DNA from: Elusimicrobiota bacterium
GTDB taxonomy: Bacteria > Elusimicrobiota > Elusimicrobia > Elusimicrobiales > UBA9959
Direction of reading: 5' to 3'
NCBI GenBank assembly: GCA_029267355.1
Contig: JAJUJA010000005.1
Coordinates: forward strand, 1-59,447
DNA: 59,447 nt
The position numbers and the translations under genes are program-made. Shown in pieces: positions 1-5,400 of the stretch. Numbering within the stretch: the stretch's first letter is position 1; the number at the start of each line of letters is the position of its first letter. The notes under the pieces were generated by a model that saw nothing but the letters and a program-made list of their open reading frames with translations, searched no databases and was not told the DNA's origin.

Positions 1-107
1 CCGCCTCAAAGCTCTGAAATCTACAGTGTATTCCGGTTTTTTCTTTTCGAGCAATTCGGATGTTTCTTTTGCCGCCTCAAAGCTCTGAAATCTACAGTGT
101 ATTCCGG
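1..107 (-). CRISPR. Type V-B CRISPR array, leader-proximal end (2 repeats, 1 spacer visible; continues beyond the window start)
   Basis: Identical 36-bp repeats at 1-36 and 72-107 (minus strand CCGGAATACACTGTAGATTTCAGAGCTTTGAGGCGG) flank a 35-bp spacer (37-71). Located downstream of cas2. The repeat boundary at the window edge cannot be confirmed. Confidence 0.93.
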
Positions 108-290
108 AGCCGCTACATTAAATGATTATTTCTGCAGTGTTTTTTTAATATTTCGCGAGTGTGAATCAATTTAACATTCATATGCGGCATAAAAATAGCT
201 CTATGTGATTTTTTTCATATTCAAAAATCCTGCGAGCGCCACGTATAATACGCCTCAGGATATAAGCACTCGCATCAAGTAACACACAGC
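108..290 (-). promoter_or_regulatory. CRISPR leader
   Basis: AT-rich non-coding stretch between the tracrRNA and the first repeat. Carries three GCGAG(T/C)G motif copies (155-161, 232-238, and inverted at 267-273). Confidence 0.7.
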
Positions 291-373
291 AAAAAATAAC
301 AAGAACACACGCAGGTTTCAAAGAACTTTGTCTTTTCAATGGCGGGGAAAAGATGGTCGTTGGCCTTAGCCAC
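291..373 (-). ncRNA. tracrRNA of the Cas12b system (~80 nt)
   Basis: Minus strand of 302-330 (CAAAGUUCUUUGAAACCUGCGUGUGUUCU) pairs with about 28 nt of the repeat using G-U pairs and small bulges. Hairpin UCUUUUC/GAAAAGA (331-353) has loop CCCGCCAUU, whose CCGCC is complementary to the repeat 3' end GGCGG. 5' hairpin UGGC-UAAG-GCCA (361-372). U6 tract at 291-296. The position between cas2 and the array is typical of V-B. Confidence 0.85.
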
Positions 374-377
374 TAAT

Positions 378-406
378 AGTCTAGCAAAAAATTTTAAAAA
401 AATCAA
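378..406 (-). promoter_or_regulatory. Sigma70-type promoter of the tracrRNA
   Basis: TTGATT (406-401), 17 bp, TAGACT (383-378), with the extended -10 TG at 386-385. Predicted start ~373-371, at the first tracrRNA hairpin. Confidence 0.65.
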
Positions 407-422
407 GCAATAAATTTAAGCA

Positions 423-716
423 TCATATAATGGTGATTCTTGTCTTACCGCAATAAGGCCTCCCTATGGACTCTACTCGTACATTAGCATCCCCACTTTC
501 GGGACCCAAAGAAATAAACAGAACCTGATCATCTTCATGATTTAGCTCTTTTTGAATTTGTGATTTTAACTTTTCATACCTAAAATCATTCAAATGAGTC
601 TCAAAAACTGAATTCTGCAAACGGCGTCCATAACCTTCCATAATCCTGGCAATATTTCTTAAACGATGCGGGTTACTAATATCGTAGCTTACAATGTAAA
701 CCTTATTTCTGCTCAT
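423..716 (-). CDS. cas2: CRISPR-associated endoribonuclease Cas2
   Basis: 97 aa, YIVSYDI and RLQNSVFE motifs; ATGA overlap with cas4-cas1. Confidence 0.96.
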   Translation of the reverse strand: MSRNKVYIVSYDISNPHRLRNIARIMEGYGRRLQNSVFETHLNDFRYEKLKSQIQKELNHEDDQVLFISLGPESGDANVRVESIGRPYCGKTRITII

Positions 717-2404
717 CTAGTAGTAAATGATGTGTAGGTATCTGCTTCGCCTCGTAAAAATCTCCAAAGCTGCCTAGCTTGTATTTCAAACATTCTCCTG
801 TAACTCATTTTGTAACCAAAAACAGGGTGTGTTATTTCCGTATCAAGCCTCCTAACCCATCCCTGCCAAAACGTTCTTCGCCCACCATCATTTAAGTTAC
901 ACCCACTAGAAGAAAACATGAAATCTGATTTCAAGTCAAGTTCCCCCCTATTAATCAAAGAAATTACAAGACTATCAACGATAAGCGGCCTAAATTCCTC
1001 CATAAGATCAAGAGCCAAAGCAGGCCTCCCATACCTCGGGTGATGGTAAAACCCAAGAAATGGGTCAAGGCCTACTGTGTAACACACGCCCGTAATCTCT
1101 TTTGCGAGAACGCTATAACCCAAAGAAAGGAGTGAATTCACCGGGTCCCTTGGCGGCCGACGGTTCCTATTTTTAAAATCGAAACTAATATTTTTTATCA
1201 TCGTTGAAAATTGAGAAAAATAAATTGCTGCCGCTTCACCTTCAATACCAAGAAGCTGATTTTCATTTTCAGCACTGTTGGCCTTATCTTTCAGATATTT
1301 CATCTTCCCAATGAAGATTTCATTGGGCTCGCCGTTTCTCATTAATAGAACTCTTTGGTTGGTAATCTTTCCTCTTATTATTTCTCTTGAAAGTTTCATT
1401 TTTATTTCTGGGTTATCAAAAAGCATGTACTGAGCACGTCTTGCGTCAATACCTGAGACAGGTAAACCGCGCAAAAGGCCAAGAAATCTTCCAGAAGATG
1501 AAAAATATGAAACATCTATATTTTCCTCAAGACATGTCTGCATCAGTTGTGCACTTATTTGAACAGGCCCGTATAGGTATATAGAACGAAGCTGATGCAC
1601 AGGAATTTTGCTTGCTGCAATACCATCACAACTTACATATATTTCTTCCCCGTGTTTCCCGACATAGGCTTTAGGATTTTGCACCACCAAAACTTCCCCA
1701 TCGTCGCTGTCAGCCATTGGCGGTTTAATTTCATTTTCAGATTTTGAATCTGGGTTTGCCCAATATCTGCTTTCGTTTGGTAAGCAAACCGGATAAGCCG
1801 AACAGTATAAACATCTACTATCATCTTTTAGAGGTGGAGGGCACTTGCCGGATGCCGCTAGTTCTCTTGCGTCAAGAATAAGTTTCCTTACCTTTTCAAA
1901 TAAATCCTCAGTTAAATCAACAGGCACACGTTTTTTATCAGCAGCATAATAAACGAAAGCCCTGTTTACGGCAAGGCCGTTCTCTCTCATTAACAAGGCC
2001 TGTGCTGCAATTTGCATGGCATCAGGTTCCTTGACAGCATATTCACCCTCACTAAGATGTCGTGAAGAGCCTCTTTTATACTCAACAATTTCTGTTAAAT
2101 TCGCATCTTTCTCAATTATGTCTATTACACCCACAAGTCCAAGTGATTTGCTTTCCAATTTGAGACTTTTTATCGTAGTGCCATCGGAAAGTTCAAATTT
2201 ATCTATATCTGAAAACTTAGATGGTTGATCCACATTCCTATGAACATAACTCCCAGAAACTGTATCGGCATTTTCCTGAAAGATATTCTCCACCCACTGT
2301 AAATAAAAAAGCCGCGGGCAGTAAACAAAGTTGTGAAGATTGCGGATGCCCATTACAGGCTGCTTTCCATAGTCATTGTCTATCCTAAGATGTGAGTCTG
2401 TCAT
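713..2404 (-). CDS. cas1: Cas4-Cas1 fusion protein
   Basis: N-terminal Cas4 (YCPR, D..VEYKRG, QxxxQ, CxxCxxxxxC Fe-S cysteines). C-terminal Cas1 (LLGIEGEAAAIYF, RNRRPPRDPVN, GFYH, LDLMEEFRP). The fusion is typical of V-B and I-G. Confidence 0.96.
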   Translation of the reverse strand: MTDSHLRIDNDYGKQPVMGIRNLHNFVYCPRLFYLQWVENIFQENADTVSGSYVHRNVDQPSKFSDIDKFELSDGTTIKSLKLESKSLGLVGVIDIIEKDANLTEIVEYKRGSSRHLSEGEYAVKEPDAMQIAAQALLMRENGLAVNRAFVYYAADKKRVPVDLTEDLFEKVRKLILDARELAASGKCPPPLKDDSRCLYCSAYPVCLPNESRYWANPDSKSENEIKPPMADSDDGEVLVVQNPKAYVGKHGEEIYVSCDGIAASKIPVHQLRSIYLYGPVQISAQLMQTCLEENIDVSYFSSSGRFLGLLRGLPVSGIDARRAQYMLFDNPEIKMKLSREIIRGKITNQRVLLMRNGEPNEIFIGKMKYLKDKANSAENENQLLGIEGEAAAIYFSQFSTMIKNISFDFKNRNRRPPRDPVNSLLSLGYSVLAKEITGVCYTVGLDPFLGFYHHPRYGRPALALDLMEEFRPLIVDSLVISLINRGELDLKSDFMFSSSGCNLNDGGRRTFWQGWVRRLDTEITHPVFGYKMSYRRMFEIQARQLWRFLRGEADTYTSFTTR

Positions 2405-2442
2405 TTCTATTACTTAACACCCCTATCAAATTAACCTTGCAT

Positions 2443-5400
2443 TTACTGTACCTTTTCCCCGTTAATCTTAGCGCATACTACCCATTCCAAATCCCTTACG
2501 GTTTTCCATAATGCTTCCCCGCTAAAAACTTTTATACCTTTGCCTTCCAATTCTGCACAACCCCACTGAACCTTACCAGAAATATCTATAAAATAGTTCG
2601 GGTTCCTGTCTTCCTCCTCATCAGATGATCCTTGATTTTTGTTAAGAATTTTTACAGATTCATTTCCTAAAAACCTTTTTTCGTTCGCATAAATATCATT
2701 TTTGATTTTCTTGCTGCGAATACGAGAATGTATAGATAATTCTTCAGGGGATGCTATTGCTCTCAGGCCAATATTCACCGCTGCATTTACGTCAGCCTGA
2801 ATTATTTTTGGCTTAAGCCCGTCCCTTTCTGTTTCAAAAGTTATAGGAATGAAGATTGGGCCTCCGCTGATAGGCAGAAGAATTGTATTTTTTTTATTAC
2901 CTCCAGACAAATTTTCCATATTCTTAAGAAGCTTTTTCGCTTCCTGTATTTTGACAGCCATCTCTGTATAAGACCCATCCTTATTTTTTTTCTCCTTCAG
3001 CCAAGACCATGGGGCGGTATTTTCAAAACCACTGGAAACTTCAACTGCTCTGAAACCTGCAACACCGGTTCGAGAACAAAATCGGGAAGAATAAGCTGCC
3101 GGCACCTCGATTACCATGGGAATATTCTTTTTACCAACTTTTATAGAGGGATAAAAAACTTCAGAAAACATTTTTAATTTATCTATCACAGCCCTGTGAC
3201 ACCATTTCATTAAGCGGCTATTTTCTCTGGGTGCTCTGCCTTGAGAAGAAAGATAACGCGACAAATTTTCAACAACTATAAAATCAACAGGTTCATATTG
3301 TCTCTCATAACTACCATGGTGGTCTCCGATGTTACCTTTGCTATTTTCTGATGGTTTTGAAAGTCTGAGACCGAGAGCCTTAGCAATTATCATATGAGCT
3401 GTTTGATTAATCCGCTCTTCCTTAATTCTGTCCAGCTTCTCCAATATATCAGGACAACAATCAGGTATTGACTCATCTCTGCTAATAATGAAATCTTCAC
3501 TTGTTTTACGTCTTAATAAATGATTCATGGATTGGAAACGCTTGCGAAGTTCAGTCAATTGCTCTAATCTAGACATAGATAAACCTCTTTGCCCACAAAC
3601 AAGAACATTTTTGGGGGCAGAACCATTTTGGGTAAGAATACCATAATCCGTGTTCTGCGGATGTCTTTCCCATTTCCAACTTCTACCTCTCAAGGGCAAT
3701 ATGCGATTTGCTATACTAACGAGTATATCAGGCAGTTCTCTCTTTCTCTTCTCTATCTCTTTTTTTATTTCATCCAAAACAGCTTCTTTGTTCGATTGAA
3801 TGTTTTTTTTCCAATAATCAGGAATACTGCTATCTTCTTGTATTTCGTTAACTGCAATACCAATCTTATTTCCCAGGCCTAAAAAAAATGCCCATCTGTA
3901 AAGTTTAGATAAATATGTTTGATATCTTTTGACGGCGACGAGCAGCTTATCATTCTGCTCGGGGAATGAAAGATCTACCTTCCAATTTGGCGCTAGACTA
4001 TTTTCAACATCGAAGCCAAGTTTTAAAAAAAGAGCTTCTGCCTCTTTTGACTCATAATCCAAAGATTTACGTCCTTTTGATCCGGATAACTCTTCAAGAT
4101 ATTTGAACTCTCCATTGTCATCTTTACGCCATATTTTTACATCCTCCCCATGCAACCTTAACAGGCCAATATCGACGACCTTTGAATACCATTTATTTGT
4201 TCCATCAAAACCTATGTATCTTGATTTACCATCACTTTTCTTTGAAATTTTCAACCTCGCGTACGCTCCGGCATTTCTTTGACCAAGATCTACGGAAAGA
4301 CATGAAAATGAATCCAACATATCCCACCATCCTTTTTCAGGAGGATTTTTAGGTTTTTCTTCATTTGGCCAACGAAGACTGTTAATAGTCTCATGCCCGA
4401 AATTAAATTGCCCTTTCCAATTAATCCCTCTAGAAACTTTTTTTTGGATATTTTCACTCTTGAGCTCAACAGGAAACACGAGCTGAATATTGTCCATCGC
4501 ATAGGGCATTAGAGTAACCTTGGTTCTATCAAAGTTTTGATTATCATATTCTTTAATACCTAGAGCTTTCATCATAGGCTGAATCCAAGAAACAGACCCA
4601 AGGTTTTCTTCTCCTTCATGACGCAAGGCATCTCTAATCATACGGGGGGAGGAATAAGTTATCTTTATTTTCTTGACAATATACGGCATAGTCCCGCCAT
4701 TATTTTTTACACACAGGTGTACTTCCAATGACATATGGCCGTGAACATCCAATCCTTTTACATGACTCGCAGAATACTCGCCATCTTTTGGAAAATCAAA
4801 ATAGCGCGGAGAAAAAGTAGAATGAGCCGGGGTAAAATGTATGGGCCTTGTTTTATCTTTGTAGTCAAGTAAAAGAACACTATAGTTCATCCATGCATAC
4901 AAAACATCCTTTGCGTGATACTGCTCAGTTCCTTCATCTCGCCATATCGGCTGGTATTTTTCTTCAATGAGAGCATTAAACAATGGGGCACTGCCGAAAT
5001 CATCGTAATGTGCGGACTGTAATTCAACAAGAGTTTTTTTAAGCCTCAATCTCAATTCAACCTGTTCAAGATTTTGTCGGGCCAATTTTAGCCACTTATC
5101 ACGCAATTCCTTGTATCCACGCAAAGTTCTTTGAGATACTGAGTATTCTCTTATTCCGGATGATACCCCGTCTTCTGACTCAGTCAAGTAGCCAAGTTTA
5201 TTACAGAGAAGATCTTTAATCAGTTCAACTCTTTTATCATCTTTAAATCCAGGTATTACTATCTCTTCTTTATCATCGCCTTGAATTGAATGTTTAGTTA
5301 ATGATCCTTCACCTTCAAAAAAATCTATTTTTCTCTTTATTTCTTTAGCCTCTTCATCTCTTTTTTGGGTATCTTCAAAATATCTATGAGGGGCAATTAT

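Follow-up and report, generated by a model that had tools for sequence, protein, structure and literature searches.

The window analysed here is the whole of a 59,447-nucleotide (nt) stretch of an Elusimicrobiota genome (contig JAJUJA010000005.1 of GenBank assembly GCA_029267355.1). Its minus strand carries, in this order, cas12b, a cas4/cas1 fusion, cas2, an RNA module, a leader and a CRISPR array, which is also the order described for other type V-B loci in section 2.1 of PMC11423069. Our subject is the RNA module, found on this strand between cas2 and the CRISPR leader, which an earlier reading of the sequence alone (the original prediction) had taken for a very compact Cas12b trans-activating CRISPR RNA (tracrRNA) with a loop-presented anti-repeat. 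All of the elements listed at that time, namely a promoter-like site, two hairpins, a CCGCC loop, an anti-repeat and a run of six U residues (U6), are indeed present on the minus strand. We consider it very likely that positions 373 to ~291 of this strand encode a type V-B tracrRNA that presents a short anti-repeat in a loop and does without the stem 3 of known Cas12b guides. The elements of the module are as follows, with stem and L names referring to their counterparts in known guides.

406-401, minus strand: -35-like TTGATT, a consensus match
383-378, minus strand: -10-like TAGACT, a consensus match, with a 17-nt spacer from the -35-like box
372-361, minus strand: hairpin 1 (stem 1 counterpart), U-GGC/GCC-A with three G-C pairs and one U-A pair, loop UAAG
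360-354, minus strand: linker ACGACCA (L2 counterpart, clade consensus CCGACCA), single-stranded, near-invariant columns in the alignment
353-347 and 337-331, minus strand: arms of hairpin 2 (stem 2 counterpart), 7 base pairs (bp), with a 9-nt loop CCCGCCAUU at 346-338
345-341, minus strand: short anti-repeat CCGCC in the hairpin-2 loop, complementary to the repeat end GGCGG (76-72 and 5-1)
330-301, minus strand: long anti-repeat of 30 nt, pairing with repeat nt 2-30, with a conserved 2-nt bulge (UCUUUGAAA motif)
296-291, minus strand: U6 run right after the anti-repeat, on sequence grounds a possible 3' end

The identification as a Cas12b tracrRNA, which agrees with the original prediction, is supported by three lines of evidence: the score of the effector, the gene order, and the conservation of the module with covariation in 55-67 distinct sequences. 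The effector matches the NCBIfam Cas12b equivalog NF033949 with 731 bits (cut-off 150) over residues 32-1351, and the cas4/cas1 fusion matches NCBIfam Cas4g/Cas1g with 635 bits. Among the candidates scored, 646 proteins are related to the window Cas12b at E <= 0.001; those listed are mostly 1330-1490 amino acids (aa) long, several of them carrying the NCBI name Cas12b, and their sources are Verrucomicrobiota, Lentisphaerota, Omnitrophota, Elusimicrobiota, Desulfobacterota and further groups. Related loci were collected by scanning species-representative genomes with a 26-protein alignment, and 80 of the 130 encoding loci were analysed, the closest being from Elusimicrobia genomes. Arrays were detected in 49 of them. 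The repeat is 36 nt long in 48 and ends in GGCGG in 48 of the 49 (L066 after re-orientation), the remaining one, L038, ending in GACGG.

The same module, consisting of hairpin 1, CCGACCA, a 7-bp stem around YCCGCCAUU and an anti-repeat, precedes the arrays of related loci by ~150-250 nt. A covariance model (R1) built from the alignment of the relatives' modules gave 69 matches when searched against 84 sources (1.05 Mb), 60 of them to array-side modules, which precede the array in 60 of the 84 sources. It matches window positions 304-379 on the minus strand with 69.7 bits (E 2e-13), its sole match in the 1.93-Mb genome. Rfam gave no match at E <= 1 in window positions 1-3000. In a control search of IMG/VR, the linker-loop pattern returned 17 chance matches, none with the stem, and no viral module copies were among them. 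A metagenome scan for loop variants (CCGACCA-N7-8-YCCDDCATTG) returned at least 118 stretches; of the 80 examined, only three satisfied a loose test for the stem, hairpin 1 and an array were missing throughout, and we rejected all of them as chance matches.

Both hairpins covary across the related cas2-array spacers, as the check suggested with the original prediction had asked. In an alignment of 55 distinct modules made with MAFFT and without structure fitting, hairpin 2 is paired in 99% of cells and six of its seven pairs show changes on both sides. Its covariation score was reached by none of 500 shuffles, slid-helix controls paired in only 33-52%, and RNAalifold, unaided, predicts precisely this helix. 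Hairpin 2 is therefore proven by covariation, and its loop forms nine gap-free columns in all 55 modules. Of the 55 sequences, 50, 51 and 50, respectively, can form the three core pairs of hairpin 1. In a model-fitted alignment of 67 distinct rows these core pairs reach 98%, with both-side changes in all three, and the two helices together are 98.3% paired, a figure to be read in the knowledge that a fitted alignment leans toward the model's own structure.

The long anti-repeat is likewise tied to its repeat. RNAduplex pairs repeat nt 2-30 with 330-301 through 26 pairs at -28.9 kcal/mol, with bulges on both strands, which makes this the best repeat-pairing site among 7904 windows of 60 nt covering both strands of the entire window (mean -12.8, standard deviation 3.1). 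The runner-up, at -27.3 kcal/mol, lies inside cas12b (3001-3075); although this pairing is probably due to chance, it speaks against our interpretation in so far as a value so near to -28.9 means that energy alone is not decisive for the anti-repeat. When 43 anti-repeats were paired with 43 repeats, the mean was -33.1 kcal/mol for the own repeat vs -23.0 for foreign repeats. The own repeat was in the top five for 31 of the 43 loci and came first of 43 for the window anti-repeat (-27.8 vs a median of -17.0). The long anti-repeat thus co-evolves with the repeat, and its 2-nt bulge is kept across the clade. It had been claimed that most deviations from the repeat preserve pairing as G-U, and that this argues for selection on the duplex. 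In the window alignment (22 Watson-Crick pairs, three G-U, one A-C and three bulged positions), three of four substitutions do give G-U, but there are also the A-C mismatch and the bulged positions. As a sign of selection the clade-wide excess is weak: 80 G-U vs 50 A-C (binomial p = 0.011, among related loci), alongside 104 other mismatches.

Array, leader and extent of the transcript

The genes, leader boxes and repeats around the module are as follows.

6519-2443, minus strand: cas12b, 1358 aa, with a Pfam C2c1 RuvC-like domain
2404-713, minus strand: cas4/cas1 fusion, Pfam Cas1 and Cas4
716-423, minus strand: cas2, Pfam Cas2, stop codon at 425-423
273-225, minus strand: leader boxes GCGAGUGC (273-266) and GCGCUCGC (239-232), a 10-bp hairpin followed by U5
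160-151, minus strand: third leader box, conserved in relatives' leaders
107-72, minus strand: first, leader-proximal CRISPR repeat, 36 nt
36-1, minus strand: second repeat copy, identical to 107-72; the window begins inside the array

An assembly break between contigs C11 and C50 splits the array, the rest of which, nine further repeats, is found at the end of contig C11 (67509-68131) of the same genome. Counted together, the two parts give a minimum of 11 repeats and of 10 spacers, which measure 34-35 nt (one spacer is cut). The two leader-distal repeats on C11 carry one mismatch each, and the repeat's 3' end, read on the cas strand, is GAGGCGG. Because the degenerate repeats lie at the far end and the GGCGG 3' end is so widely kept in related arrays, the data fit an array transcribed on the minus strand with its leader at 290-108. 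None of the genome's 10 spacers matches elsewhere in its own genome. As to a protospacer-adjacent motif (PAM), two spacers of this array had no exact match in IMG/VR, and BLAST against phage records with this array and the 48-spacer array of L067 returned chance hits at E 0.2 or none.

The -35-like box begins 16 nt past the cas2 stop codon. In 36 of the 55 related modules, the best sigma-70-like match puts the -35 element into the same position (25-29 of an 81-nt frame). A conserved TTG box lies ~47 nt before CGACCA and the -10 box ends 18-22 nt before it, a spacing that would place the start at the foot of hairpin 1. The putative transcription start is therefore at ~373-371.

How far such a transcript extends is a separate matter. 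The module might instead be the 5' part of one long RNA continuing across the leader and on into the array, or the processed 3' tail of the cas operon, with the anti-repeat acting in cis on the first repeats. Several observations agree with this and weigh against a short, separate RNA. The module shares its strand with cas2 and the array, its -35-like box is close to the cas2 stop codon, and only 190 nt separate U6 from the first repeat, so that a joint transcript is possible. No hairpin precedes U6, and a terminator scan of positions 1-800 found no site; a promoter scan found three promoter-like sites vs 2.9 expected, with no array promoter standing out. At the U6 position, the two nearest relatives (L014 and L015) show no more than T4. 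The hairpin and U5 at 273-225 could serve as an alternative 3' end, giving an RNA of ~148 nt (fold energy -22.2 kcal/mol for 85 nt from 281, a second small hairpin included). A search of sequencing runs for this DNA found one DNA entry and two runs of the same study, but no RNA run. However, the TTG box is kept at a fixed distance in 36 of 55 loci, U6 and then the 10-bp hairpin with U5 stand between module and array, and the V-B systems studied make a separate tracrRNA (PMC6546382). We therefore regard the long transcript as unlikely, if worth keeping in mind; it would alter the transcript map and leave the pairing scheme unchanged.

The leader boxes GCGAGYGC, GCGCTCGC and the GCTCGCAA-like box sit between the tracrRNA and the array. 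Of 43 related leaders, 38 contain the first box, GCGAGYGC, and 36 contain GCTCGC, and the boxes are kept even where the repeats differ completely. They may serve in termination, in spacer integration (as a leader motif) or in protein binding.

The hairpin-2 loop and the repeat end

In addition to the long duplex, RNAduplex pairs repeat nt 32-36 with the CCGCC of the hairpin-2 loop (345-341). We compared the loop with the repeat end in 56 partner pairs, which take in nine modules fused into single guides beside cas12b (described below) and the further array-side pairs L035, L060, L066 and L085. Of these, 53 combine CCGCC with GGCGG, three combine CCGUC with GACGG, and none is discordant (Fisher 3.6e-5, uncorrected for kinship). 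The variant is found on the array side of L038, where the loop is CCGTC and both complete repeats end in GACGG, and in two of the nine fused modules (L050 and L088, both from one metagenome-assembled genome); the other seven fused modules have CCGCC with GGCGG. L038 thus has the variant on its array side and the consensus in its fused module; in L050 the arrangement is reversed. Loop and repeat end thus change concordantly, which, together with the covariation of hairpin 2, supports the loop-presented short anti-repeat that had been proposed.

Since hairpin 2 is proven and the loop would pair outside it, the two helices, taken together, make a pseudoknot; that is, the fold is a pseudoknot if hairpin 2 and the 5-bp helix form at the same time. 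Under the scheme that we favour, the RNA would be transcribed from its own promoter just after cas2 and fold into hairpin 1, the conserved linker and hairpin 2. Its 3' part (330-301) would pair with each repeat of the precursor CRISPR RNA over the first ~30 nt, while the CCGCC of the hairpin-2 loop would pair with the last five repeat bases, GGCGG, beside the guide, and the resulting pseudoknot of hairpin 2 and the 5-bp helix would be held by Cas12b. Transcription, the RNA ends, processing, Cas12b binding and coaxial stacking are what we infer in this scheme.

An alternative is that the RNA is a tracrRNA whose CCGCC loop stays unpaired with the repeat end, loop and GGCGG each being conserved through direct reading by Cas12b. 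Much of the data would permit this, and the same data weaken the case for pairing. Loop and repeat end are near-invariant, so most loci are uninformative on pairing, the 53 consensus pairs being mostly silent. The covariation amounts to one base pair in three cases, two of them from one metagenome-assembled genome, among related loci. ViennaRNA, which handles nested folds only and no pseudoknots, opens hairpin 2 when the RNA is cofolded with the repeat, and its minimum-free-energy folds do not hold hairpin 2 and the 5-bp helix together. For a 71-nt single-guide design, the nested fold reaches -22.1 vs -20.2 kcal/mol for the three hairpins, and the 5-bp helix would add -8.3 kcal/mol to the -20.2, before loop penalties. 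Against an unpaired loop stand the three double changes (loop C to U with repeat end G to A) without any single-sided change, as well as L038, in which the array pair is the variant while the fused module of the same locus retains consensus with consensus. Moreover, Jiao et al. 2024 (PMC11246509) describe Cas12b duplexes in which a pseudoknot with a short stem of 5-7 bp accompanies the long, bulged repeat:anti-repeat stem, and in BhCas12b and BthCas12b reprogramming of both stems was possible. A homologous 5-bp duplex is visible in the ChCas12b structure (PMC12204704). We thus think it quite improbable that the loop goes unpaired, and prefer the pseudoknotted tracrRNA.

The anti-repeat agrees with the complement of the repeat in 22 of 29 aligned columns, which might point to the module being a decayed, functionless inverted copy of the repeat. 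This idea is refuted by the covariation data and has next to no probability, as the 45-nt part unlike the repeat (hairpins and linker) is kept with compensatory changes across phyla and the anti-repeats track their own repeats.

Comparison with known Cas12b guides

The tracrRNA of AacCas12b was found to be 79 nt long by RNA-seq. The proteins that bind the known guides are distant from the window protein: AacCas12b, BthCas12b and BhCas12b match it in the RuvC region only (E 4e-14), and the best match among solved Cas12b structures, 9KLN, also covers the RuvC region only (E 1e-19). Like the window locus, those of AacCas12b, BthCas12b and BhCas12b (5U30, 5WQE) have the tracrRNA between cas2 and the array, with a 3' long bulged anti-repeat and a guide-adjacent 5-bp short duplex that forms a pseudoknot (PMC11246509, PMC6546382). 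However, their guides have three stems, whereas the window RNA has neither stem 3 nor L6.

A further comparison is with ChCas12b (9KLN), another large effector (1496 aa). Its guide, as laid out in PMC12204704, runs through stem 1, a 7-nt L2, a 6-bp stem 2 enclosing L3, anti-repeat 2, L4, stem 3, L5 and L6, and then reaches anti-repeat 1; of the 91-nt scaffold, 75 nt make up the tracr part and 16 nt the repeat part. Stem 1, the 7-nt L2, a stem 2 enclosing a 5-nt anti-repeat 2 and the anti-repeat 1 that follows are all matched in the window. In ChCas12b, the helical-II domain binds an ordered L2 (PMC12204704), and by analogy the linker at 360-354 may have a similar role. L3 is 3 nt in ChCas12b vs 1 nt here, and where ChCas12b places L4, stem 3, L5 and L6 (-55 to -34) before the 3' arm of stem 2, the window RNA has only AUU (PMC12204704). 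With stem 3 and L6 absent, the core before the long anti-repeat is 42 nt (372-331) vs 64 nt in ChCas12b (-91 to -28), and the 91-nt scaffold of ChCas12b compares with 63-67 nt in related natural fused guides (PMC12204704 for the ChCas12b values). The description of the RNA as very compact is overstated for the whole and fits only this core, as its ~74-83 nt are about the same as the 75-nt tracr part of ChCas12b.

The Aac guide has the same parts as that of ChCas12b, with stem 2 longer by 3 bp and stem 3 by 2 bp (PMC12204704). The original prediction had set the loop pseudoknot apart from AacCas12b, which overstated the contrast: in the descriptions given by PMC12204704 and PMC11246509, loops closed by stem 2 hold the short anti-repeat in Aac and ChCas12b as well, and the real difference is the missing stem 3. 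By this analogy the pseudoknot itself is not new. What appears to be new is the absence of stem 3 and its linker, together with a repeat that ends in GGCGG instead of CAC.

NiCas12b and DtCas12b, also large, from uncultured bacteria and with the same locus order, show the loop pairing with other letters, as GTGTC in their stem-2 loop pairs with the repeat end GACAC; unlike the window RNA they have stem 3 (PMC11423069). The NiCas12b variants V1, V2 and V4, with the bulge removed or the stem-loop truncated, had 'dramatically reduced editing efficiency' (PMC11423069). According to the same paper, the cas2 - tracrRNA - array layout is found in 11 of 15 orthologs and the repeat ends in CAC in 13 of the 15, compared with GGCGG here; a GGCGG end is in none of the 10 scaffolds examined out of the 15 in its supplementary table.

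A natural Cas12b branch without stem 3 shows which parts of a V-B guide are dispensable, and the missing stem shortens the guide scaffold by ~20 bases relative to the enzymes examined to date. Single guide RNAs for Cas12b have been described as exceeding 100 nt (PMC12246129). The ~70-nt single guide envisaged in the original prediction is plausible, given natural fused versions of 63, 65 and 67 nt in related loci, and these natural 63-67-nt guides offer a template for a shorter scaffold, for an effector that is itself large (1358 aa). The comparative tracrRNA study of Faure et al. 2018 did not include V-B because its diversity was too low (PMC6546382), and the clade-wide alignment provides the V-B comparison that was lacking. 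We found no paper on this Cas12b branch or its RNA in the literature searched, patents and subscription journals being outside its coverage, and no literature joining Cas12b, tracrRNA and Elusimicrobia. The 11-mer motif was not found in the papers surfaced by a motif search, a kind of listing that cannot show absence.

Fused single guides in related loci

A second covariance-model match lies within ~500 nt of the cas12b start in nine sources, with none in the window. These fused modules, and a small conserved open reading frame (ORF) that accompanies some of them, are located as follows.

L023:6524-6660, L038:966-1125, L030:7215-7375, L042:6516-6655, L079:270-365 and L081:3054-3140, plus strand: fused modules on the cas strand, model matches
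L090:6802-6700, L050:2429-2300 and L088:6827-6715, minus strand: divergent fused modules, model matches
L023:6720-6974, L042:6720-6974, L038:1239-1538, L030:7427-7774, L079:456-791 and L081:3211-3429: small conserved ORF of 72-115 aa between guide and cas12b

The fused modules hold the full scaffold, with an intramolecular hairpin in place of the long duplex, and end in TGAGGCGG or TGAGACGG. As natural single guides they measure 63-130 nt, the shortest being 63, 65 and 67 nt. In eight of the nine, the 24 nt after the module contain a contiguous 8-11-nt match, counted from the repeat-proximal end, to a site 64-156 nt away. In L023 we read a 7-nt match, located homologously to the one in L042. 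Over all nine, the match sites lie 62-156 nt away, and ATC precedes every one of them, which predicts an ATC PAM.

Natural single guides of the tracr-L/CreR type carry a short match to a cas promoter, through which the effector represses its own operon (PMC10120712). By analogy, the fused guides are probably autoregulatory guides of this kind. Tracr-L (Streptococcus pyogenes type II-A) and the CreR/CreA guides share with them the single guide and the short match (PMC10120712). However, those belong to type II, I or V-A, whereas the fused modules are type V-B and are separate genes beside cas12b. Among the papers listed in our search, none linked Cas12b with tracr-L or natural single guides.

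A broader proposal, for which we see the balance of the arguments as even, is that the GGCGG-type Cas12b branch, with hundreds of proteins across Verrucomicrobiota, Elusimicrobiota, Omnitrophota and further groups, relies on a tracrRNA without stem 3, the core of which can act as a single guide of 63-70 nt. The branch would also have evolved natural single guides of this sort next to cas12b, with or without the small ORF, which direct Cas12b to a 7-11-nt, ATC-flanked site at its own promoter. This would be the V-B counterpart of tracr-L/CreR, with a 5'-ATC PAM that is unusual for Cas12b. If the relatives' self-targeting single guides are confirmed, RNA-guided autoregulation of cas genes would extend to type V-B.

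In both L038 (966 vs 7962) and L050 (2429 vs 8977), it is the same loop base that distinguishes the fused guide from the tracrRNA on the array side (CCGCC vs CCGTC), and each loop fits its own repeat end where that end is seen. The difference may be a way of separating two guide channels.

The small ORF was detected by tblastn only in the six loci with a cas-strand guide, among 85 sources, and searches of Pfam, NCBIfam and PADLOC gave no family for it below E 0.05. In L038 and L030 we read the guide's ATC-flanked match site as lying at the start of this ORF. We had also considered that an insertion interrupts cas12b in L030, L079, L078 and L080, and tblastn led us to reject this. In L078 and L080 it revealed only a weakly conserved region without a high-scoring match, and in L030 and L079 a full-length gene following a 5' remnant. 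This remnant is a duplicate of the first ~45-52 codons of cas12b upstream of the cassette (L030:7001-7158 and L079:63-266), and recombination inside the 5' end of cas12b appears to have brought in the cassette of single guide and small ORF.

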